Source of the DNA: Escherichia coli
Lineage (GTDB): Bacteria; Pseudomonadota; Gammaproteobacteria; Enterobacterales; Enterobacteriaceae
DNA length: 64,000 bases
Assembly (NCBI RefSeq): GCF_041248615.1
Contig: NZ_CP158426.1
Reading direction: 5' to 3' (one strand)
The position numbers and the translations under genes are program-made. The notes beneath the pieces were generated by a model that had not been told where the DNA came from, did no database searches, and saw only the letters and a program-made list of their open reading frames with translations. Positions 1 through 40,744 of this stretch are shown in pieces. Position 1 is the first letter of the stretch. Each line of letters opens with the position of its first letter.

Positions 1-1117
1 TCGCCGCGAAACACTGGTAATCGGGCAGTATGGGCGTGACGGTATCAGCCTGGCAGAAGCGCGAGAAGAACTGATTGCTGCAAAGAAGCTGCTTAAAGCA
101 GGCCAGTCGCCGGCCGCGGCTAAACGTGACGGTATCAAAAAGATTCGTGGTGCCGAGACGTTTGCGGTACATACCGACAGTTATATGAAACACGTCATCC
201 TGGCTGAAAGTACCCGCGCAATGAAGCAGGCAGTGATCGACCGTGACATACTTCCGGTTCTTGGCAACAAAATGATGGCTGAAATTACCACATCGATGGT
301 TCGTGATTTGTGTGACCGGATTGTCGAACGCGGTGGTCGGGCAACAGCAGTACAGGCCAGGGAGATCATCAGCAGCGTATACCGTCACGCCAATGACCGT
401 GGTCATGGTTTGTTTAATCCTGCGGCTGACATTAAACCTTCGTCTATCGCCATATTTAAACCACGAGAGCGAACACTGACACCAGAAGAAATTGGTCTGT
501 TCTTCCGCACGCTGGATGCCATTGGTGCTATGGGCACTATGAAAATGGCTTTAAAGCTGGTGCTTATCACTATGGTCCGTAAAGGCGAATTCACCAATGC
601 AACGTGGGATGAAATAGATTTTAAAAAATGGACATGGACAATTCCTTCAGACCGCATGAAGGGAAGTCGGGCGCACGTTATTTACCTGCCTAAACAGGCA
701 CAGGATATATTAGTCGGGTTGCAGATGTGCGCTGGTGGAAGTGAATATCTGGTTCCTGGTCGTTACAATTTCCGGAAGCCATTATCTAATGCCGCGCTGA
801 ACTCTCTGATCGACAGAACGGTGAAAATAATAAATGAAGATGGTGAGCATATTCAGGACTTCACCGTACACGATATGCGCCGTACAGCCAGTACGTTGTT
901 GCATGAGGCTGGTTATCCTTCAGACTGGATTGAAAAGGCTCTGGCACATGAGCAGAAAGGTGTGCGCGCCGTATATAACAAAGCGGAATACGCCAGACAG
1001 CGCGCCTACATGTTGCAGCAGTGGGCCGATATGATTGATTCCTGGATTAACGGGGAGCATACGGATCTGATTCCGTTCTCCCCGTCGAAGTTTGAGAGGT
1101 GGATGGCGGGGGAATAA
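1..1117 (+). CDS. int: Tyrosine integrase (P4-like), 5'-partial
   Basis: Reading frame is open from window position 2 and continuous with ORF 185..1117; C-terminal catalytic region HDMRRT...VRAVYNKAEY...WAD typical of tyrosine recombinases. Confidence 0.88.
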   Translation, partial: RRETLVIGQYGRDGISLAEAREELIAAKKLLKAGQSPAAAKRDGIKKIRGAETFAVHTDSYMKHVILAESTRAMKQAVIDRDILPVLGNKMMAEITTSMVRDLCDRIVERGGRATAVQAREIISSVYRHANDRGHGLFNPAADIKPSSIAIFKPRERTLTPEEIGLFFRTLDAIGAMGTMKMALKLVLITMVRKGEFTNATWDEIDFKKWTWTIPSDRMKGSRAHVIYLPKQAQDILVGLQMCAGGSEYLVPGRYNFRKPLSNAALNSLIDRTVKIINEDGEHIQDFTVHDMRRTASTLLHEAGYPSDWIEKALAHEQKGVRAVYNKAEYARQRAYMLQQWADMIDSWINGEHTDLIPFSPSKFERWMAGE

Positions 1118-3543: not shown

Positions 3544-4361
3544 ACGTACATATCCTGTTTACGTGCCCAGTCAGGGCGTTTAATAATTTCCACGCCGCCC
3601 CATTCATCATTTATGCGGCATTCGTGATAGGTATTCAGATCCCGGCGGAACAGAGCGTGCCCGGCATCGACATCCGGCGCATCCAGCTCGAACACGCGTA
3701 CCGGATACCGACCACAATCAATGCTTTCGCTCACGGCAAGAAAGAAAAAACCATGCGGTTGACCAGTAACCCTCATTGCGCCTTCGCGGTACATTGCGTC
3801 CTGCACGTGGTAGCGGAATTCCTCGATGTGGCGTGCAAAACGGTCCATATCTGCAACCTTTTTCACGTCGACGATCACGTTGTGCTCGTTCAGCCATTTG
3901 TCTGGACGAATGCGGCACAACTCACCCGTCTCTTCATCGTTCCAGTACATTGATGCTTCGCAGTAACCAGGTGCTTCCAGCATCCAGCGTGCCGCCGGAT
4001 GAGCCATTGCGCTATCACGCATGAGCTCAAGTTTTCGCCACTGCTCGACATCAAGTACCGTAATACCCATATCCGCCACATCACGAAGAAATGCTTCTTC
4101 GTCAGCTTTACCTTGTTTTGTCCGACGATCGAATTTCGGTGAAACGATGAAGCGTTTGTCAAACTCTCCAGGTTCCAGAAGCAGACAGTGCAGAGCAGTA
4201 CCCATGTCCAGTGCAGACTTCTTCTCTTCGTCTTCCGGAGCAGCCTTCACCCATTTCAGAAGGGCAGGGTTCTTAGCCACCATATCTAGCTGCGACTTAC
4301 TCACGCCGTCACCGGCGTGGTAGTCCTCGTTGCTGATATCGAAATAAATTCCCGGATTCAT
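3540..4361 (-). CDS. PD-(D/E)XK exonuclease (RecE/YqaJ-like) partner of the annealase
   Basis: 273 aa; N-terminal ISNEDYHAG..SKSQL and RPDKW...VDVKK nuclease motif. Confidence 0.6.
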   Translation of the reverse strand: MNPGIYFDISNEDYHAGDGVSKSQLDMVAKNPALLKWVKAAPEDEEKKSALDMGTALHCLLLEPGEFDKRFIVSPKFDRRTKQGKADEEAFLRDVADMGITVLDVEQWRKLELMRDSAMAHPAARWMLEAPGYCEASMYWNDEETGELCRIRPDKWLNEHNVIVDVKKVADMDRFARHIEEFRYHVQDAMYREGAMRVTGQPHGFFFLAVSESIDCGRYPVRVFELDAPDVDAGHALFRRDLNTYHECRINDEWGGVEIIKRPDWARKQDMYV

Positions 4362-6301: not shown

Positions 6302-7117
6302 ATGAGCAGACATGCAACAGATTGGGCCTGGGAGACAGATCCAGGTAGCTCGTCATTAAAGCTCATACTGCTCTCGATGGCTGACAGAGCCGATGAATAT
6401 AACCTCTGCTACCCCAGCATAGAACGCCTCGTTAAAGACACTTGCCTGAATAAAAAAACCGTGCAGGCCGGGCTTATATCGCTCATGAAAATGGGGCTTA
6501 TTTCAGATACCGGAGAGAGAAAGGGGGCGACGAAAAGAGTACGGGTTTTCTCTCTTAATATAACCAAAAACGGGAACATTAAAGGCAACCGGGAGGGGGG
6601 TAATGAACCCGAAAACGGTAATGTTACCGAAAACGGGAATATACCCAAAAACGGGATGTTGAATGATCCCAAAAACGGGATGTTGAATGATCCCAAAAAC
6701 GGGATCCAGAACCAGTCATATAACCAGTCATTTAACCAAGAGAGGGAGAGCAGGACAAAAAGCGGGGATTCTGTGCCTCATGACCCCGGCGCAAACAACG
6801 CCGTGATGAATAACTTTGTTCCTCCTGGTGGGCCAGGGCAATTAGGCAAATTTGTCATGCATGAACAATGGCAGCCATCAGATGACTTTCTTCGGAAAAG
6901 CTCATTGCAGGGGATCTACCTGGACAGTCTGCCAACGGCACAGGAACTTGCAGAGTTCAGAATTTACTGGATGGCTGAGGGTAAGGCATACCATCAGGCA
7001 CAGTGGGAGCAGAAGCTGGCAAGGCGGCTGCAGATTAGCAGACAGAAGCAATCAACATTACCTGATAACAACGTTCCGCACTGGAACAGCCCTGAAGCAT
7101 GGGAGGATTTCTTGTGA
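6302..7117 (+). CDS. Replication initiator (O-like) with N-terminal HTH and DnaT-like C-terminal domain; contains origin iterons
   Basis: C-terminus GKFVMHEQWQPSDDFL...EFRIYWMAEGKAYHQAQWEQKLARRLQI resembles E. coli DnaT C-terminus; iteron array inside gene. Confidence 0.7.
   Translation: MSRHATDWAWETDPGSSSLKLILLSMADRADEYNLCYPSIERLVKDTCLNKKTVQAGLISLMKMGLISDTGERKGATKRVRVFSLNITKNGNIKGNREGGNEPENGNVTENGNIPKNGMLNDPKNGMLNDPKNGIQNQSYNQSFNQERESRTKSGDSVPHDPGANNAVMNNFVPPGGPGQLGKFVMHEQWQPSDDFLRKSSLQGIYLDSLPTAQELAEFRIYWMAEGKAYHQAQWEQKLARRLQISRQKQSTLPDNNVPHWNSPEAWEDFL
6564..6707. repeat. Iteron array (6 direct repeats CC(A/G)AAAACGG(G/T)A..., including a perfect 24-bp tandem duplicate 6644-6667 / 6668-6691); probable phage origin of replication
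   Basis: Direct repeats read in sequence inside the O-like gene, analogous to lambda ori within O. Confidence 0.6.
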
Positions 7118-14852: not shown

Positions 14853-14929
14853 TGGCGTGGCATGCAGGATTCGAACCTGCGACCAACCGCTTAGAAGGCG
14901 GTTGCTCTGTCCGACTGAGCTAATGCCAC
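14853..14929 (-). tRNA. tRNA-Arg (anticodon UCU), phage-encoded
   Basis: 77 nt; reverse complement GTGGCATTAGCTCAGTCGGACAGAGCAACCGCCTTCTAAGCGGTTGGTCGCAGGTTCGAATCCTGCATGCCACGCCA; 7-bp acceptor stem, T-loop GGTTCGAATCC, anticodon loop CTTCTAA, encoded CCA; close to E. coli argU in layout. Confidence 0.85.
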
Positions 14930-32094: not shown

Positions 32095-32117
32095 AAAAAA
32101 GCCCGCAGCGCGGGCTT
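32095..32117 (-). terminator. Rho-independent terminator of AT-rich moron gene
   Basis: Stem GCCCGC/GCGGGC with A6 on plus strand; overlaps stop codon. Confidence 0.65.
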
Positions 32118-32655
32118 ACCAAAACTTGTACCACGGGGATTTATCCTTCAATGGACAATCCTTCCATCGTGTGGCCAACCATTCATATTCTTTAAAATAT
32201 GTGTTTATGTTTTCTTTTTCTCTAATGGCTTGTATAAGAGGTAGCGCAATCTGATAGTTATTTACAACGGAGCTGTAAAATACTTCCTTAATCATGGTCT
32301 CATCATAAGTTTTCCGCTTCACGCTCACAGCCATGCGTTCGTAGAAACCTAGACAGTAAATTATTTCTCTCTTCTCTGTCTTTTCTTCATCCGTAAGATC
32401 AGCCTGCCCATTGCTTGGATACATATAAGAGCGGAATGATTTGTTCGATTCGTGAATGCGGCGCATAGTAGATAGGCCTTTCTTATAATCTACATCAAAC
32501 CTGCTTTCACCAAGGAATACTGAAGTGTGTACTTTTCTCGCTGTATTTACATTATAAATAATAGTAGCGATAGCTATGAACAAGCCAAGCGAAACCGCGA
32601 CTGCACTTACGATTTGAGCCACAGCCATGGCAAATTGCATTTCTTCACTTAACAC
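32116..32655 (-). CDS. AT-rich moron: membrane-anchored protein (N-terminal TM helix plus ~140-aa cytoplasmic domain); candidate superinfection-exclusion / abortive-infection factor
   Basis: 179 aa; GC visibly lower than flanking phage DNA; own GTG start with GGAGA SD, own terminator; lies in a position analogous to P22 sieA (between ejection genes and ant). Confidence 0.55.
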   Translation of the reverse strand: MLSEEMQFAMAVAQIVSAVAVSLGLFIAIATIIYNVNTARKVHTSVFLGESRFDVDYKKGLSTMRRIHESNKSFRSYMYPSNGQADLTDEEKTEKREIIYCLGFYERMAVSVKRKTYDETMIKEVFYSSVVNNYQIALPLIQAIREKENINTYFKEYEWLATRWKDCPLKDKSPWYKFW

Positions 32656-32784
32656 AAACTGTCTCCAGACATGAAAACGGGGCCTAATGGCCCCGTCATT
32701 AAACTATCCGAATGTTAAACGCCTTCGTACTCGTCAAATTTTCTCATGTGGGCTCCTCCTGTATCGGTGCCTAATCGCTATGGA

Positions 32785-32799
32785 TCACCCGTGAGGTAA
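32785..32799. promoter_or_regulatory. Operator-like palindrome TCACCCGTGAGGTAA
   Basis: TTACC-N5-GGTAA variant in gap between moron and ant genes. Confidence 0.4.
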
Positions 32800-32865
32800 T
32801 AGTAAGCTATTCACCTGCAATCTGTACAGAATTATTTAAAGGCACATCCCTGTGCCGCCGCCCCG

Positions 32866-33576
32866 TCAGAAGAACCCTGCCTTGTCGTTGATGTATTCCG
32901 CGTGAGTCTGGATATCACGCAGGCATTTGCTCACACCGACGATGTAGCAAAACATGGTGGTCAGCTCCGCCGCCGCGCCCGATACGTCGTGCCCGTCGTC
33001 CTGTAACTGGTTCAGCAGATTCATCAGCAGTGAGTTCTCCGTCAGGCCGAGAACACCAGACGGAGAATGAATCAGACTGCGGTAGCCGGGCTTCAGTGGG
33101 GCGCTGTAGGTTTTGTTCTCTATCTTCATTGCCTGCATCACTGCTGATGCTGTGGCGTTGGCTACCTGGTCGGCAACCATCTTTATGCGTTCTTCCTGCG
33201 GGAGCGAGTTTTTAATGTAACTTCCGGTGCGGCGGATCTGAGGAAGAACCTCACCTGTAACCCATTTACGAAAGCGGTAGGGGATAGTGCCTGGTGTCAC
33301 CGCATCGCGGCAGCGGAGGATCAGTGTGTAGAGGCCTGACTCGGAGATGATGTTGATCTCTTTTACTCGGCTGTCAAAAATCGCACGATGTTCATGCCCT
33401 ATGTTGAACATAGACCTTTCATCATCATCCAGTTTTTCAAGTGATTGGGTGACGTTTTGGATACGCAGCGCACTACAAACGTCTTGGGCTACAAACCATG
33501 GTTGGCCATCGATAATGATGGAACGGATAGGGTTAACAGATTCAAATTTGAAGATGGCAGTTTGAGCATTAGCCAT
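32866..33576 (-). CDS. Antirepressor (Bro-N domain plus C-terminal Ant-type domain)
   Basis: N-terminus FKFESVNPIRSIIIDGQPWFVAQDVCSAL...ISESGLYTLILR...VLPQIRRTGSY is a Bro-N signature; ATG 33576 has GGAG SD (track GTG start 33591 rejected). Confidence 0.7.
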   Translation of the reverse strand: MANAQTAIFKFESVNPIRSIIIDGQPWFVAQDVCSALRIQNVTQSLEKLDDDERSMFNIGHEHRAIFDSRVKEINIISESGLYTLILRCRDAVTPGTIPYRFRKWVTGEVLPQIRRTGSYIKNSLPQEERIKMVADQVANATASAVMQAMKIENKTYSAPLKPGYRSLIHSPSGVLGLTENSLLMNLLNQLQDDGHDVSGAAAELTTMFCYIVGVSKCLRDIQTHAEYINDKAGFF

Positions 33577-33594
33577 GGTGGTTATCTCCACTTA

Positions 33595-33608
33595 GTGATT
33601 TTAATCAC
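33595..33608. promoter_or_regulatory. Near-perfect 14-bp palindrome GTGATTTTAATCAC overlapping ant ribosome-binding region
   Basis: Read in sequence; 6/7 half-site symmetry; directly upstream of ant SD. Confidence 0.4.
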
Positions 33609-33731
33609 CACCGCAACGCCAATTACTGGTGGTGAACTGGACAAGGTTGGCGTACCGGCCTAAGTGGTACCGGCGTCCTTTCGGACCCCTGCCCAGCCCA
33701 CCATAATTCGGATATAGCTGTGCTTAACGCA

Positions 33732-33755
33732 TAAAAAAACCACGTCTGGCGTGGT
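33732..33755 (-). terminator. Rho-independent terminator downstream of small antirepressor-domain gene
   Basis: Stem ACCACG/CGTGGT with A7 run on plus strand. Confidence 0.6.
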
Positions 33756-33845
33756 ATGCGCCACTTAGTAACTCGGGACGCCAATCCCGGCACTGGATTT
33801 TGCCAGTGCCAGATTACTATGGCACAAGAGGAGTGCGATGTAAAT

Positions 33846-33860
33846 TTACCGCAAAGGTAA
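33846..33860. promoter_or_regulatory. Operator-like palindrome TTACCGCAAAGGTAA
   Basis: Perfect half-sites, 32 bp beyond the 3' end of gene 33892..34149. Confidence 0.45.
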
Positions 33861-33891
33861 ATATAAGCACTCCAGTTGGTAATTGCAAACC

Positions 33892-34149
33892 TTATCTGGT
33901 TTGTTTTCGTAATTGTTCGGCACAATAGTCGAGATGTGTTTGCAGATCCCGCATAGACATCTGTGAGCTGGTGACGTAGTTAATCAGTGCAGTCAGTTCG
34001 GCAAGTGGGCCATCGACATTAAATCCATCCTTATCGAGATCCCGGAGTAATTTCATCAAGTGCGATCCCTCCACCAGTGACCTGACGCCTCCCGGCGTGT
34101 GAATCCTTTCGGTAAATCCGTCTTCCAGTGGATAGTGATACTGCTGCAT
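33892..34149 (-). CDS. Small stand-alone antirepressor-domain protein (85 aa), LexA-box controlled
   Basis: ATG 34149 with SD GGAGAAG; sequence aligns with C-terminal ~65 aa of the Bro-N antirepressor (IH-P-GV...LM-LL..L..DG..V.G..AELT...YV...RD-QTH..Y); LexA box 22 bp upstream. Confidence 0.5.
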   Translation of the reverse strand: MQQYHYPLEDGFTERIHTPGGVRSLVEGSHLMKLLRDLDKDGFNVDGPLAELTALINYVTSSQMSMRDLQTHLDYCAEQLRKQTR

Positions 34150-34168
34150 CTTATCTTCTCCATGCAAT

Positions 34169-34188
34169 AACTGTATATTTATACAGTA
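34169..34188. promoter_or_regulatory. LexA (SOS) box AACTGTATATTTATACAGTA
   Basis: CTGT-N8-ACAG with AT-rich spacer, near consensus TACTGTATATATATACAGTA; immediately upstream of small antirepressor gene. Confidence 0.7.
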
Positions 34189-34225
34189 GCAAATAATTTG
34201 TTTGCTATCCAGCACGTTTTGCAAA

Positions 34226-34240
34226 TCACCTGAAAGGTAA
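34226..34240. promoter_or_regulatory. Operator-like palindrome TCACCTGAAAGGTAA in divergent region upstream of tailspike; followed by ATATGTGGTT-N5-GGTAAT (34271-34291)
   Basis: TTACC-N5-GGTAA variant; shares ATATCTATTCGTA 13-mer with site at 5981. Confidence 0.45.
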
Positions 34241-34344
34241 TATCTATTCGTATTTACAGTCTTTCTATCCATATGTGGTTTTTCAGGTAATAGAATAACC
34301 AGATATGCGGCGCAACGGGTGCTGCGACTATCTGGAGATTTAAC

Positions 34345-36927
34345 ATGACGGTCTCAACCGAAGTTGACCACAACGAATACACCGGTAACGGAGTTACGAC
34401 ATCGTTTCCGTATACTTTCCGCATTTTCAAAAAATCCGACCTGGTTGTTCAGGTGTCTGACCTGAACGGGAACGTAACAGAATTGGTTCTGGATACCGGT
34501 TATACAGTAACTGGAGCTGGCACTTATAGTGGCGGTTCTGTGGTTCTTCCGTCTCCGCTTGCTACTGGATGGAGAATTACGATAGATCGTGTGCTTGATG
34601 TAGTACAGGAGACAGATCTTCGCAATCAGGGAAAGTTTTTTCCCGAAGTGCATGAAGATGCCTTTGACTACCTGACGATGCTGATCCAGCAATGTTTTGG
34701 GTGGTTCAGACGTGCATTGATGAAACCATCTTTGCTTGCAAAATATTACGATGCAAAGCAAAACAGAATTTCTAACCTTGCAGATCCATCACTTGAGCAG
34801 GACGCTGTAAATAATCGCTCAATGCGTAATTATGTCGATGCTGCAATCGCCGGAGTTGTTGGTGGTTTTGGTTGGTTTATTCAGTATGGTTCTGGGGCAG
34901 TATACAGAACGTTCCAGGATAAGATGCGTGACGTTTATAATGTTAAAGATTATGGGGCGAAAGGTGACAATATTAACGATGATACGCTAGCATTTATTGC
35001 AGCAGCAAATGCTCTCGGAGAGGGCGGAAAGTTATATATTCCAACAGGAACATACAATTTAACTGGTCCAGTTAATATACCACCAGTGAATATGTGCGGC
35101 GATGGGCAGGGTGAAACAGTTATTGTGTTTGACAATACCACATCACCAAAAGACGGCTTTGTTTTCGCTGCGCCAACTAAATATGATATTGAATTTGGTT
35201 TAAGTCACCTTACAGTTAAAAGAAAAGGCGGGAATGGAGCTAATGCTATATATACCCCAAGAGGTGTCGGGCTTAACCATCTAAGACCAAAACCAACATT
35301 TAGATTTTTATCTTTCTGTTCTGAAACTGCAAATATTGATTCTGATGAATTCGCTCAGAAATACGGCTGGGAATGGTCTTTTAACTGTGGTGATAGTTGG
35401 CAGTTCACAATCGAACGCATTGATGCTGTTGGATGTTATCAGATAGCCAAAAGTTATAATGAACAGTTCCTTGATGGATTCATTCGCACCGCTCCAGAAG
35501 AGGGGATTTTATCAATGCGTGTGAGTGATATCACAACGCATAATGTTGCAAATTTTTTTGAAATTAAGCAGAAGACATATTTTACATTGCTTAATATTGA
35601 TGCCGCCAAGGCATTACGAGGCATTTACGACGCTGATGATCGTATATTTGAAACGAATCGTTATGCTTATGGTGAATGTATATGCACAAATGTTGGTATT
35701 AATGCCCAACTTGAACCAGTACGGCTGGATAACAGATTCCTGCTCATCATGAATGGTATGTTTATTCACCGCGCAGCAAAAGGTTACGATCATGGTCTGG
35801 AATGGGTTGGTCTTAAGCTTAGTCGTGCTCGCGTGTGTTCATTCCAGGGAATTGAGATCGGCACTGCCAGAGGGTATTCAGGGACTAAGAAAGGGATTGT
35901 TCTTGACGCCGGTGATGCAAATAACTTTACCAATGTAACTTTTGGTTTGCTTGATGTGTGCGCACAGATTGGCGATTCCAATTCACAGTATGGTGCCAAC
36001 TTTGCAACATGCTTTAATAATGTGAGCATTAATGCTGACACCGTATTGTTATTCGATTTGCAGCTATGCAGAAATTTCCATTGTGATGGATACGGAGCAT
36101 CTTCTGCCTACACTCTTCAGCAATTCCATAGGAACAGTGATGACACAAGCAATACTTATACATTTAGTAATGTAGGTAAACACAATCTCTACACTGACAA
36201 CTCGCTGTACCTACATAATTCTGCTTCGCTGGAGAACGGGAAGAATATACGTATTGATACACGAAACGGATTATCTGTTAGCACTCAAGCAGATACTGGT
36301 TCCGCAGGAAATAACTTCCTTATAATTCGTAGGACTGGTGTTGATATAGACAGTTTTGAGTTAAGGACTCGCAGTACAGCAGGTGCATATACATATATTA
36401 ATACACCTGAAACTCATTTTTCTGGCCTTATAAAACCAACTGTTGATAATGTTAACTCAAACGGAACATCAGCATTTCGATGGTCACAGGTATACGCTGG
36501 TACTGGCAGTATCAACACGTCGAATGAAGAGCTGAAATTGCGTATTGAGGCTGACGAGAAAACAACAGAATCAGAGCGTCTTGCTGCGCTTGAAATAAAG
36601 GAAAATATCTGGAGGTTTAAATTTAAAGATGCAGTAAAGATCAAGAGTGATGGCGCTCGGATTCATTTCGGTGTTGGTGCACAAACTGTAGGTAATATTC
36701 TCAGAAAATACGGTCTTGACCCTAATAACTATGCGTTCTGGTGTTATGATGAATGGGATGATATTTATGCTCCAGAAGTATTGATTAGGAGTGTTAAAAA
36801 CAATGAAACAGGAGAGTGGTACGACGAGGAATATTACACAGGAAGGCAGATTATTATTAAACCTGCTGGCTATCAGTATGGTATCAGATACGAGGAACTT
36901 CTGATGTTTATTCTTATGTTTATTTAA
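34345..36927 (+). CDS. Tailspike / tail fibre protein with conserved N-terminal attachment domain and AT-rich exchangeable distal part
   Basis: 860 aa; N-terminal ~190 aa at phage-typical GC, remainder AT-rich; Gly/Asn-rich beta-helix-like repeats; C-terminal segment possibly a chaperone-like domain. Confidence 0.7.
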   Translation: MTVSTEVDHNEYTGNGVTTSFPYTFRIFKKSDLVVQVSDLNGNVTELVLDTGYTVTGAGTYSGGSVVLPSPLATGWRITIDRVLDVVQETDLRNQGKFFPEVHEDAFDYLTMLIQQCFGWFRRALMKPSLLAKYYDAKQNRISNLADPSLEQDAVNNRSMRNYVDAAIAGVVGGFGWFIQYGSGAVYRTFQDKMRDVYNVKDYGAKGDNINDDTLAFIAAANALGEGGKLYIPTGTYNLTGPVNIPPVNMCGDGQGETVIVFDNTTSPKDGFVFAAPTKYDIEFGLSHLTVKRKGGNGANAIYTPRGVGLNHLRPKPTFRFLSFCSETANIDSDEFAQKYGWEWSFNCGDSWQFTIERIDAVGCYQIAKSYNEQFLDGFIRTAPEEGILSMRVSDITTHNVANFFEIKQKTYFTLLNIDAAKALRGIYDADDRIFETNRYAYGECICTNVGINAQLEPVRLDNRFLLIMNGMFIHRAAKGYDHGLEWVGLKLSRARVCSFQGIEIGTARGYSGTKKGIVLDAGDANNFTNVTFGLLDVCAQIGDSNSQYGANFATCFNNVSINADTVLLFDLQLCRNFHCDGYGASSAYTLQQFHRNSDDTSNTYTFSNVGKHNLYTDNSLYLHNSASLENGKNIRIDTRNGLSVSTQADTGSAGNNFLIIRRTGVDIDSFELRTRSTAGAYTYINTPETHFSGLIKPTVDNVNSNGTSAFRWSQVYAGTGSINTSNEELKLRIEADEKTTESERLAALEIKENIWRFKFKDAVKIKSDGARIHFGVGAQTVGNILRKYGLDPNNYAFWCYDEWDDIYAPEVLIRSVKNNETGEWYDEEYYTGRQIIIKPAGYQYGIRYEELLMFILMFI

Positions 36928-37343
36928 AATATAGCGCAGGGATGCGCTATTCAACTATTTTATAAAATTAATAACTATTCATGCGATATAATGTGGCCTC
37001 TTTTATCTTTGCAGAATTAAAAACTATAGAAAATATTTTGTATTATTATAAATGCTTCTGGATCATATTAATCAGTTTGCCATCTATTAGAACTTTGATT
37101 ATTGATGCATCAATTATTTAACATAGTGGTTGTGCGCAACTCCACTAACGATTGAATATAGATTGTTATTTTTGTTTACACTGTCACACAAGAACATCCT
37201 TACCTGTCAATCAACATTATTATTTTTTGATTCCATGATGTTGATTTGTGATGTAAAAAAATACATATTAAACCATATATGGATTGTAATTCGTGGTTAC
37301 AATTCTTGTTGTTTTTTTATGGTGAGATAAAAAAGGTGTTTTA

Positions 37344-37745
37344 ATGTCATTTCAATTAACAGGAGAGTCAATAAATCAATGGCTTAGCCTTGGTTCTCTA
37401 GCAGCGGTGATAGCAGGAGTGCCTCCAGAAGTAGCTCTTGGGTCTTTGTCAGGAGCGGTAATTTTTGTTACCTCTGCTGTAGAGTATCCTGTTCGTCGTC
37501 GTGTACTCTTGTCGATACTCAGCTTTCTTTGTGGTCTTCTCTTTTACAAACCAACTGCATCAATTCTTATAGGCATAGCCAGTCTAATTCCTACCATTAC
37601 TCAGGACTCTTTCGAGAAAGGGATTGTTTTCTCTGCTGGCGCATTTGTGTCAGCAATAGTCGCAGTGCGAATTGGCATCTGGCTCTATCACCATTCCGAT
37701 AATCCACGCGAGTTAATTCCTGGGAGAAAAGACGATGGTAACTAA
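37344..37745 (+). CDS. Putative holin (multi-TM membrane protein)
   Basis: 133 aa, several hydrophobic helices, first gene of lysis cassette. Confidence 0.5.
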   Translation: MSFQLTGESINQWLSLGSLAAVIAGVPPEVALGSLSGAVIFVTSAVEYPVRRRVLLSILSFLCGLLFYKPTASILIGIASLIPTITQDSFEKGIVFSAGAFVSAIVAVRIGIWLYHHSDNPRELIPGRKDDGN

Positions 37746-38043
37746 TGAGCTTGTTTTGCTTATCACCAATGCAGTTATTTGTACTGGCATAGCAATTCGC
37801 GTTGTCACATTCCGGCGTAACGGCTCTCAACACCGAAGGTTGGGAGGCTGGCTTGCTTATTTCCTGATTGTTGCTGCAGCTAGTATTCCTGTTCGTGTCG
37901 TCTATGCAATCTGGTTACGTACGCCAATGGCTGTGGATTTATCTGAGGTCATTATCAACGCTGTCATGCTTGCAGCGGTTATTAAAACGCGCGGTAACGT
38001 CGTGCAGATTTTTAAAATAACGAGGTCTAAACATGGAGATTAA
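37735..38043 (+). CDS. Putative second holin / antiholin
   Basis: 102 aa, three hydrophobic segments, charged C-terminus. Confidence 0.45.
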
Positions 38044-38662
38044 ACAATTCCAGCGAGCTGCTGGTATTAGCGAGGCGCTGGCCGCACGCTGGTTCTCGCA
38101 TATAACTTCTGCGATGAAAGAGTTTGGTATCAGCAAAACCGAAGATCAGGCAATGTTTATTGCTCAGGTCGGGCATGAGTCTGGTGGTTTCACCAGGTTG
38201 CAGGAGAATTTCAACTACAGTGTCAGCGGTCTAGCTAACTTCGTTCGGGCTGGGCGTCTCACTCAGGGGCAGGCTAATGCACTTGGTCGCCGTGCTGGTG
38301 AACCACCATTGCCACTTGAGCGCCAGCGCGCGATCGCAAATCTGGTATACAGCAAACGCATGGGTAACAATGCTCCCGGCGATGGCTGGAATTACCGTGG
38401 GCGCGGGCTTATCCAGATTACCGGTTTGAATAACTATCGTGACTGCGGAAACGGCCTAAAAGTGGACCTGCTGGAGAATCCTGAGCTGTTGACGCAGGGC
38501 GAATACGCGGCTCGTAGCGCGGCGTGGTTCTTCTCCAGCAAAGGCTGCATGAAGTATACCGGCGATATTGCACGTGTAACTTTGATTATCAATGGTGGCA
38601 GGAACGGCATCGACGACCGGAGAGCGCGGTACATCACTGCCAGTAAGGTGCTGGCGGTATGA
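38033..38662 (+). CDS. Endolysin, glycoside hydrolase family 19-like
   Basis: 209 aa; motifs GHESGGF and [15 protein letters not shown]. Confidence 0.75.
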
Positions 38663-39141
38663 TCTGGGCATTCGTAAAAGCATACTGGAAACAGTTGCTT
38701 ATCGTGGCGGTGCTTGCTGTTCTGGTCATATCAGGAGTTGTTGCCTGGAATGTACACGGTAGCCGTCAGTACGACGCCGGGTATGCACAGGCGAAGGAAG
38801 ACCGCAAAGCTGAAGATGAGAGAGTTCGTCAGCACTACGAACAGGAGAAAGCGACCAATGAACGTGAAGCTCAGCAGAGGATCGACCAGGCGCGCAATGA
38901 TGCTCTTGATGCTGCCGCTCGCGCTGGCCGGTTGCAGCAACAACTCTTTGCCATCCGTGAGCAGCTCAGGCAGTATAACGCCATTGTCGGCGCTGGGACA
39001 TCAGCCGCAGACACCGGAGTTTTGCTTGCCGACGTGCTCAGCAAATCTCTCGAGAGAAACAGACAACTGGCAGAGTATGCTGACCGGGCAGCCGAAGCCG
39101 GAAGAGTCTGCGAAAAACAGTACGACACTCTGACCAGATAG
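38659..39141 (+). CDS. Rz-like i-spanin
   Basis: 160 aa, N-terminal TM helix then coiled-coil; contains embedded +1-frame lipoprotein gene. Confidence 0.65.
38858..39133 (+). CDS. Rz1-like o-spanin lipoprotein embedded in Rz
   Basis: Alternate frame inside Rz; ATG 38858 with AGGAG upstream; signal peptide with lipobox LALAGC. Confidence 0.5.
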   Translation: MNVKLSRGSTRRAMMLLMLPLALAGCSNNSLPSVSSSGSITPLSALGHQPQTPEFCLPTCSANLSRETDNWQSMLTGQPKPEESAKNSTTL

Positions 39142-39292
39142 CATGGCATTTTTCATGGTACTGATTTCCGGTGACGGTATATAAAACGGTACTAGAAAAA
39201 TGAAGTTTTGGAAAAATGTTATCACTCAATTTGTTATGATTGTCGTAAATAATTGAGTGGGAATGATTTTGATCCCTGCACTATGAATGAAC

Positions 39293-39322
39293 AAAACCCT
39301 CTGTTACTACAGAGGGTTTTTT
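39293..39322. terminator. Bidirectional intrinsic terminator between prophage end and yfgI
   Basis: Stem AACCCTCTG/CAGAGGGTT, A-run before and T-run after. Confidence 0.65.
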
Positions 39323-39360
39323 ATCTTCAAGAATTATAGGCTTGAAGTTACTTACATCGA

Positions 39361-39900
39361 TTAATTAAACCAGCTGTCCGATTTGTTCTCTTCTGCTTTG
39401 CCCACGCTTTTCATCATATCTCGACCGCCCTCAGTCATATTCCTGTTTGCGTCAGCTTCAGATTGCACCACATCGGTTTGCGCAGCTTTGTGCTTCAGTT
39501 CCTGATCGATAAATTCGTTTTCTCGCTTAACGCGGGCTTCTTCTTTCGCCAGCGCCAGTTTTTGTTTCTGAATCTCTAAACTGCGCAGCTCATCTTCATA
39601 ACTTTGATCGCGTTTTTTGTCCGCAGTGGCTTCGGCGTCCAGTTTATCCTGACGAGCTTTCTTATTCGCCGCTGCCGTTGCCGCTCTTTTATTAGCCGCG
39701 GCCTGGGCGTTTGCGCGACGTTGCTTCTCTTGCTGGATTTCCCTGTTGCGCTCCGCGACCCATTCGTCATGCTGCCTTTGCTCTTCATTTTTACCTTGCT
39801 GTTCCGCTTCTGCGACAGCAGAGAGTTGATCCTGCAATGATGAGGCGATAGCCGGATAGCTTAAGGAGGCTAAGATGGCGCAAAGAAAAACTTTCTTCAT
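39361..39900 (-). CDS. yfgI: YfgI (nalidixic acid resistance-associated periplasmic protein)
   Basis: 179 aa, signal peptide, charged coiled region; matches recollection of E. coli YfgI and local synteny. Confidence 0.85.
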   Translation of the reverse strand: MKKVFLCAILASLSYPAIASSLQDQLSAVAEAEQQGKNEEQRQHDEWVAERNREIQQEKQRRANAQAAANKRAATAAANKKARQDKLDAEATADKKRDQSYEDELRSLEIQKQKLALAKEEARVKRENEFIDQELKHKAAQTDVVQSEADANRNMTEGGRDMMKSVGKAEENKSDSWFN

Positions 39901-39915
39901 GACTCCTCCTGATTA

Positions 39916-40434
39916 TTAGCTCTTTTCAGGACATTTGGTATTTGGCTGAATACGCGTTTCGTTATACGTCGTGGTAATAACAACGGCTAAACCTGTCGTA
40001 AACTGGCACTCTTTACCCACCTGGGTGGAGGTATACACTTTGGTGCCTTCCTTATACGTTAGAGAAACACCTTCCACTAAGGTTTTATCATTCACCATAG
40101 AACCCGCTGCCGCGCCAACAGCTCCGCCGCCAACTGCACCTGCCGTCGTTCCGGAATTGCTGCCAGACCCCACGTTGTGGCCGATTACACCGCCAGCGAC
40201 TGCACCAATAAGCGCGCCGAAGGCTTGTGCGTTTCGTTTATTTTGGGAGTTGTCTACGGCAACTTTTGCGGGAAGAATGGAAATAATATTAACGGTTTTA
40301 GTTTCTTGTTTGGTATTCAGTTGATCGGTTTGATAAACATCGGCGGCATGATCATCAGCATTTGACTGGCATCCTGCCAGAGTGAATGACGCCAACATTG
40401 CCACAGGCAGAAGACATTTTTTAAATTTCATCAC
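39916..40434 (-). CDS. yfgH: YfgH outer-membrane lipoprotein (glycine-zipper)
   Basis: 172 aa, lipobox LAGC, Gly-rich zipper segment. Confidence 0.85.
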   Translation of the reverse strand: MMKFKKCLLPVAMLASFTLAGCQSNADDHAADVYQTDQLNTKQETKTVNIISILPAKVAVDNSQNKRNAQAFGALIGAVAGGVIGHNVGSGSNSGTTAGAVGGGAVGAAAGSMVNDKTLVEGVSLTYKEGTKVYTSTQVGKECQFTTGLAVVITTTYNETRIQPNTKCPEKS

Positions 40435-40744
40435 TATTCCTTGTTATACACATTACGAAAAATAAGACATTTAAGATCATCAAAAGAGGAAAGTAAATGT
40501 ATTGCGTATAAAGGAATAGATTAAATTTATTAAAATTCATGTGGAAAATAATTTATAAAAATACATCATTAAAACATATGTATTAATTTTATATTTATTT
40601 CGCAGCCAAACAGGATAAACATCAGTCAGGACAAAGACGTAAAATTTAAGATGAAAGAATATCTGCCGCTTTGATAATCCCAAAGAGCAAAAGCATCCGA
40701 CAGCGAGGTGCCGTTATGTTCTGTGAAAGTGGAGAAGGTAACCG

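Follow-up and report, generated by a model that had tools for sequence, protein, structure and literature searches.

Where does the prophage in this stretch of the Escherichia coli chromosome end, and what is the short interval between its last gene and the host gene yfgI? The window, by which we mean the whole 64,000-nucleotide sequence that was analysed (contig NZ_CP158426.1), carries some 150 bp between the stop codon of an Rz-like spanin gene at 39141 and the terminator stem-loop shared with yfgI, a gap that an initial annotation, made from the letters alone, had described correctly and had read as a probable attR region. We put at about 95% the probability that the stretch, taken as a whole, is best explained as the attR of an intact prophage of the phiV10/epsilon15 type (Uetakevirus), inserted at the 3' end of guaA by integrase-mediated recombination at a short core. 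The attachment site has already been described; the core is the published one, and there is nothing new in kind about it.

The right-hand junction was mapped from both of its parents. On the host side, window 38600-40500 was used as a query against 5,426 complete E. coli genomes, 5,421 of which gave a match. In roughly 4,900 of the 5,426 the match starts at window position 39252 (query base 653) and runs rightward, with guaA directly upstream, and 530 (about 10%) have the identical phage-yfgI junction. The empty site was also read directly in K-12 and LWY24, where guaA runs straight into the DNA that lies to the right of the core. On the phage side, window 36900-39400 matched free phage genomes, among them phiV10, ZX5, phiv142-3, EC.W1-9 and the O157 typing phages, up to 39268 (query base 2369) and no further; epsilon15 likewise ends at 39268. 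Given that empty-site genomes start at 39252 and free phages end at 39268, the 17 bp common to both constitute the att core, ATTGAGTGGGAATGATT (Table 1). The core reads ATT GAG TGG GAA TGA, the last four codons of guaA (I-E-W-E) and its stop, followed by two further bases, and the copy at attR is an orphan guaA 3' end.

Since the window begins inside int, attL lies outside it, in the public record. We read this flank from the E. coli NRZ14408 record (NZ_LT599825.1), of which positions 1440001-1504000 are identical to the window. The core is found there as a 17/17 exact direct repeat at record positions 1439660-1439676 (3660-3676 in stretch L002), 325-341 bp upstream of window base 1. It sits at the end of guaA (L002 3674), and int starts at L002 3867, leaving 192 bp between the guaA stop and int. 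Within the window the core is unique: neither a window-wide direct-repeat search nor a search for the core with 3 mismatches returned a second copy. The initial annotation had held that the core could not be defined without attL, and had proposed looking for a direct repeat shared with the left junction and comparing the region with the empty site of a non-lysogen. The core proved definable, attL being available about 330 bp beyond the window, and both comparisons bore out the attR proposal: the shared repeat is the 17-bp one at attL, and in non-lysogens the guaA flank seen at attL and the yfgI flank seen at attR are linked by one core. The annotation had looked in the right place, as the core and the right arm of its 9-bp inverted repeat overlap.

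An attP of 323 bp, spanning the distance between the Rz stop and the start of int, is rebuilt when the core is flanked by the left side of attR and the right side of attL. In phiV10, ZX5, epsilon15, SPN1S and BUCT554 this interval has exactly that length, and the rebuilt sequence aligns end to end with these five free-phage attP sites with only one compensated 1-nt shift. For ZX5 (vB_EcoP_ZX5) the core has been given as attgagtgggaatgatt, located in attP 190 bp upstream of int, with the same sequence serving as attB at the guaA 3' end (PMC9782041). The attB, attL and attR of that phage were confirmed by junction PCR and Sanger sequencing, and its authors report the same core sequence for the attP of phiV10 and epsilon15 (PMC9782041).

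Table 1. Features of the attachment region and its neighbours. Positions are those of the window; conservation is the share of invariant columns across six attP sequences.
Feature	Position	Strand	Sequence or remark
Tyrosine integrase, C-terminal part	1-1117	+	gene start 134 nt upstream of window base 1 (record 1439867)
Candidate excisionase, AlpA family, 82 aa	2364-2612	-	PHROG 66 and Pfam Phage_AlpA
Rz-like spanin (DUF2514)	38659-39141	+	last phage gene before attR; open reading frame and Pfam
Phage-derived P arm of attR	39142-39251	.	present in free phages, absent from empty-site genomes
attP 4-53 (P-arm block)	39142-39191		94% invariant columns
Three direct GGTAY/CGGTAY repeats	39154-39193	+	CATGGTACT (39154-39162), GACGGTATA (39173-39181), AACGGTACT (39185-39193)
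attP 54-81	39192-39219		32% invariant columns
attP 82-106	39220-39244		52% invariant columns
IHF-consensus-like site	39224-39236	+	ACTCAATTTGTTA; 1 mismatch to WATCAANNNNTTR; contains the left arm of the inverted repeat
attP 107-130 (core and 7 bp to its left)	39245-39268		96% invariant columns
Second IHF-consensus-like site	39246-39258	-	ACTCAATTATTTA; 1 mismatch; overlaps the right arm and the left end of the core
att core	39252-39268	+	ATTGAGTGGGAATGATT; exact 17 bp, single copy in window
Probable 11-bp sub-region of strand exchange	39252-39262	+	ATTGAGTGGGA; from MK416010
Host DNA downstream of guaA (B' side)	39269-39360	.	colinear with K-12 and LWY24 empty sites
Bidirectional terminator of guaA and yfgI	39293-39320	.	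stem-loop, present in empty sites
Host hairpin CTTCAAG/CTTGAAG	39325-39347	.	in LWY24 empty site; imperfect in K-12 (ATTGAAG)
yfgI (DUF5384)	39361-39900	-	host gene right of attR
attB (LWY24)			left flank ...GCTACC, core ATTGAGTGGGAATGATT, right flank TTGAACCCTGCAC...
attP (phiV10)			left flank ...GTAAATA, core ATTGAGTGGGAATGATT, right flank AACAGCTAACTC...
attL (same strain as window)			left flank ...GCTACC, core ATTGAGTGGGAATGATT, right flank AACAGCTAACTC...
attR (window)			left flank ...GTAAATA, core ATTGAGTGGGAATGATT, right flank TTGATCCCTGCAC...

With both junctions fixed, the prophage extends from record position 1439660 to 1479268, or window -340 to 39268. Its core-to-core distance of 39,592 bp is a unit genome length, the genomes of phiV10, ZX5 and epsilon15 measuring 39.1-39.7 kb. 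The RefSeq annotation gives it 50 phage CDS and one tRNA gene with zero pseudogene flags, and its left 25 kb are 97-98% identical to isolated Uetakeviruses over 80-87% of the length. The integrase, which contains the Pfam domains Arm-DNA-bind_3 (72 bits), Phage_int_M and Phage_integrase (71 bits), is 99% identical to the Int of phiV10, whose record places it in cd00801 (INT_P4), and 88% identical to that of epsilon15. The product of 2364-2612 matches PHROG 66, 'excisionase and transcriptional regulator' (E = 2e-16), and Phage_AlpA (24.2 bits against a cut-off of 21), and this AlpA-family protein may have a role in excision.

A lysogen of Klebsiella allowed us to narrow the region of crossover. 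In MK416010 attL reads ATTGAGTGGGAATGATT and attR reads ATTGAGTGGGAGTAATC, so that core positions 12-17 are of the phage type at attL and of the host type at attR. As these positions stay with their parental sides, strand exchange would lie in the first 11 bp of the core and is probably confined to ATTGAGTGGGA, as judged from one Klebsiella lysogen with an attB type that we infer. A scan of genome contigs found no empty guaA site in Klebsiella; it did find an unoccupied Enterobacter guaA end of the GAGTAA type. This GAG-TAA ending supports GAGTAATC as the host-type sequence and serves as a partial check on the attB type. Inside this 11-bp limit, the best dyad for core-type sites, AAATAATT-GAGTGGG-AATGATTA, matches at 6/8 positions in attP and 5/8 in attB, which weakly suggests a 7-bp overlap GAGTGGG.

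Exact copies of the 21-mer ACGATTGAGTGGGAGTAATCC occur across many phyla, and the one hit that was read directly is a guaA end. A conserved T-I-E-W-E-stop C-terminus of GuaA could account for this recurrence, in which case the core would lie on very widely conserved coding sequence.

The initial annotation had also singled out repeated GGTACT elements, a 9-bp inverted repeat and a second hairpin as candidate integrase arm-type or IHF sites. All three are present. The GGTACT copies lie at 39157-39162 and 39188-39193, and the right arm of the inverted repeat, AATTGAGTG, lies at 39251-39259 as given; its left arm, CACTCAATT, occupies 39223-39231 rather than 39224-39232, and the hairpin, placed at 39324-39346, is likewise one base off, with CTTCAAG at 39325-39331 and CTTGAAG at 39341-39347. 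As candidates, the GGTACT copies fared well, since they belong to the part of the P arm that is best conserved and match the integrase-binding motif of the epsilon15 record; that record also has an IHF site annotated at each arm of the inverted repeat. The second hairpin did not survive as an att element, being host DNA that is present in empty sites.

The two GGTACT copies are the first and third of the P-arm repeats (CATGGTACT and AACGGTACT) and belong to a larger set. GGTAY occurs seven times in attP, three times in the P arm and four times in the P' arm, where GGCGGTACA, GACGGTATT and AAAGGTATA are direct and GACGGTATG is inverted; five of the seven are CGGTAY. The five CGGTAY copies in the rebuilt 323-bp attP compare with 0.2 expected, and none of 1000 shuffles reaches five. 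The GenBank record of epsilon15 marks GGTGACGGTA as integrase-binding on both arms. Together these data indicate that the GGTAY/CGGTAY repeats are probably integrase arm-type sites. Conservation was scored as invariant columns across six attP sequences, the rebuilt one and those of phiV10, ZX5, epsilon15, SPN1S and BUCT554 (Table 1).

The inverted repeat called for more caution. A perfect inverted repeat of at least 9 bp with a loop of 3-60 nt occurs in 3.7% of 2000 dinucleotide shuffles of 39142-39290, and by itself the repeat is only marginally unusual. Both one-mismatch IHF matches hold the same positions in 6/6 attP sequences, where the epsilon15 record has its two IHF features. Two such matches do not exceed chance (0.8 expected, p about 0.19). 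Perfect agreement between the arms of the repeat is confined to the E. coli phages; 8/9 positions match in SPN1S, BUCT554 and the Klebsiella prophage and 6/9 in epsilon15, and since guaA dictates the right arm, compensating changes cannot occur there. Given a count at chance level and a repeat that is degraded in relatives, the IHF assignment is only plausible: the ACTCAAT-containing arms may be IHF-like bending sites beside the core, a suggestion drawn from positional conservation only.

Could the repeat instead act chiefly through a hairpin formed by the nucleic acid, for example one that stabilises the 3' end of the late lysis transcript or is cut by RNase III, and not as att DNA that binds proteins? 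The single-stranded DNA fold of the CACTCAATT/AATTGAGTG hairpin is better than all 200 shuffles (z = -4.85), its position, past the Rz stop and ahead of the terminator, is on the transcribed strand, and RNase III sites are annotated at other places in the attP of the epsilon15 record. Against these points, the substitutions in the left arm of SPN1S, BUCT554 and epsilon15 go without compensation and give zero covariation support, no U-tract follows the hairpin, and the part that is conserved is the IHF-consensus TCAA...TTA pattern. A scan of 38900-39600 (E up to 1) returned no Rfam family that reached, or came near, its gathering score, and the shuffle frequency given above also counts against this reading. 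We consider an RNA role of this kind quite unlikely and retain the reading of the arms as att DNA. Still less credible is that the interval encodes the small hydrophobic peptide MKFWKNVITQFVMIVVNN (39200-39256), with its stop codon in the core. The 18-codon open reading frame exists in the window prophage and in phiV10, but ZX5, SPN1S and BUCT554 lack the start codon, epsilon15 has an internal stop and no Shine-Dalgarno sequence is visible upstream; this mini-ORF, not being conserved in relatives, was rejected as extremely improbable.

A different objection is that the junction is a fossil, left by a cryptic or defective prophage whose attR no longer works in excision. Its P arm does differ from that of phiV10 at four positions. 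All four substitutions, however, affect columns of low conservation, the arm-type block matches that of phiV10 exactly, both copies of the core are 17/17, and the prophage has unit length without annotated pseudogenes. Its Int, moreover, is 99% identical to that of a viable phage, and the close relative ZX5 was spontaneously induced from the same site (PMC9782041). We therefore regard a dead junction as very unlikely, and an intact attR remains our preferred reading.

The rebuilt attP (window 39223-39268 and L002 3677-3703) contains a further element of symmetry. An inverted copy of each half of the core lies about 19 bp outside it, as CACTCAATT, 19 nt and AATTGAGTG on the left and GGAATGATT, 18 nt and AATCATTCC on the right, and the core centre is close to an axis of symmetry for these outer copies. 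On the right, AATCATTCC extends to 13/16 matches with the core, and a further related copy, TCATTTCTATTCAC, is found beyond the phage terminator. The outer copies might help to organise the recombination complex, either as additional core-type sites for the integrase or as sites for accessory proteins, an idea that we hold to be unlikely. We know of no such extra sites described for the phiV10/epsilon15 group. If this reading were true, then, taken with the Klebsiella evidence, a 7-bp overlap, GAGTGGG, would fall among the codons that specify the universally conserved C-terminus of GuaA.

To the right of the core lies host sequence, and the terminator and the CTTCAAG/CTTGAAG hairpin were both ruled out as phage att elements, as each is present in the LWY24 and K-12 empty sites. 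In a non-lysogen the terminator at 39293-39320 serves guaA and, on the opposite strand, yfgI, whereas the lysogen has it downstream of the phage lysis operon. The phage has a terminator of its own downstream of the attL core (L002 3677-3760), and its stem, CCCTCTG/CAGAGGG, is the same as in the host terminator shared by guaA and yfgI. In the lysogen the two would thus trade places, the phage look-alike ending guaA and the host terminator ending the lysis operon. The shared stem suggests that a guaA 3' flank gave rise to the P' side of attP. No sigma-70-like promoter reading out of attR was found in 38900-39500.

These data allow us to propose how the two junctions arose. The P4-like tyrosine integrase, with its N-terminal arm-binding domain, would recombine ATTGAGTGGGAATGATT in attP with the identical copy at the guaA end that forms attB. 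In this scheme Int would occupy arm-type and core sites while IHF bends the P arm. The attL product keeps the guaA frame intact, with the last codons, the stop and a replacement terminator supplied by the phage, and the attR product joins the P arm (39142-39251) through the core to the original DNA downstream of guaA, including the host terminator. Excision would presumably proceed from attL and attR by Int and host IHF, and would probably need the AlpA-like protein (2364-2612). The junction positions, the core, the attP reconstruction and the integrase family are established here, and integration at the same site has been published.

Compared with the attP and attB of phiV10, epsilon15 and vB_EcoP_ZX5, the site has the same 17-bp core, the same position between the Rz-like gene and int, the same 323-bp attP and the same arm repeats, and the same guaA target and guaA restoration. 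Differences in the site are limited to strain-level substitutions, whereas tailspike and accessory genes vary among the relatives.

The att site of phage lambda, a core flanked by Int arm-type, IHF and Xis sites, is the classical architecture of this kind. It shares with the present site a tyrosine integrase that has a separate arm-binding domain and repeated motifs on both arms; the IHF-consensus-like matches flanking the core and the small candidate directionality factor may be further counterparts. It differs in that the integrase here is P4-like (Arm-DNA-bind_3) rather than lambda Int, the putative excisionase is of the AlpA type, the 17-bp core belongs to the coding 3' end of a gene rather than to intergenic DNA, and the binding sites here are predicted ones. 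Integrases of the P4/CP4-57 type, which use tRNA 3' ends, offer a parallel in integrase subfamily and AlpA-family partner, and there too a phage copy of the target 3' end keeps the gene intact after integration. In contrast to those systems, the target here is the protein-coding guaA, and the phage also brings a terminator with a stem identical to that of the guaA terminator.

The meaning of these results is mainly one of annotation: the prophage boundaries are fixed, and guaA remains a complete gene in the lysogen, its 3' end and terminator coming from the phage. The 11-bp limit on the crossover and the map of conserved arm motifs could also guide the use of the integrase as a tool for integration at guaA.

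Several other features of the prophage were recorded. A tRNA-Arg gene (anticodon TCT) lies at 14853-14929 on the minus strand, between the terminase and portal genes. The accessory genes encoding DUF4760 and BRO-N proteins (32116-34272, minus strand) and the tailspike gene (34345-36927, plus strand; glycosyl hydrolase 28-like) are unlike those of phiV10 and epsilon15, and over this region phage matches begin only at about 37350, upstream of the holin genes, as is usual for a mosaic host-range module. Within the DnaT-like replication gene (6302-7117), the motif CC(C)AAAAACGGGA(A/T) is repeated five or six times at 6556-6708, with three copies following one another in tandem at 24-bp intervals; the repeats look like origin iterons by analogy with the lambda O gene. 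Finally, a palindromic 15-17-mer, (T)TACCT-N3-AGGTAATA, occurs in intergenic positions upstream of several phage operons (5993-6007, 7939-7953, 15254-15268 and 34228-34242), and TATGTGGTT follows it by about 45 nt at three of these four sites; the two together are candidate phage operator/promoter modules.
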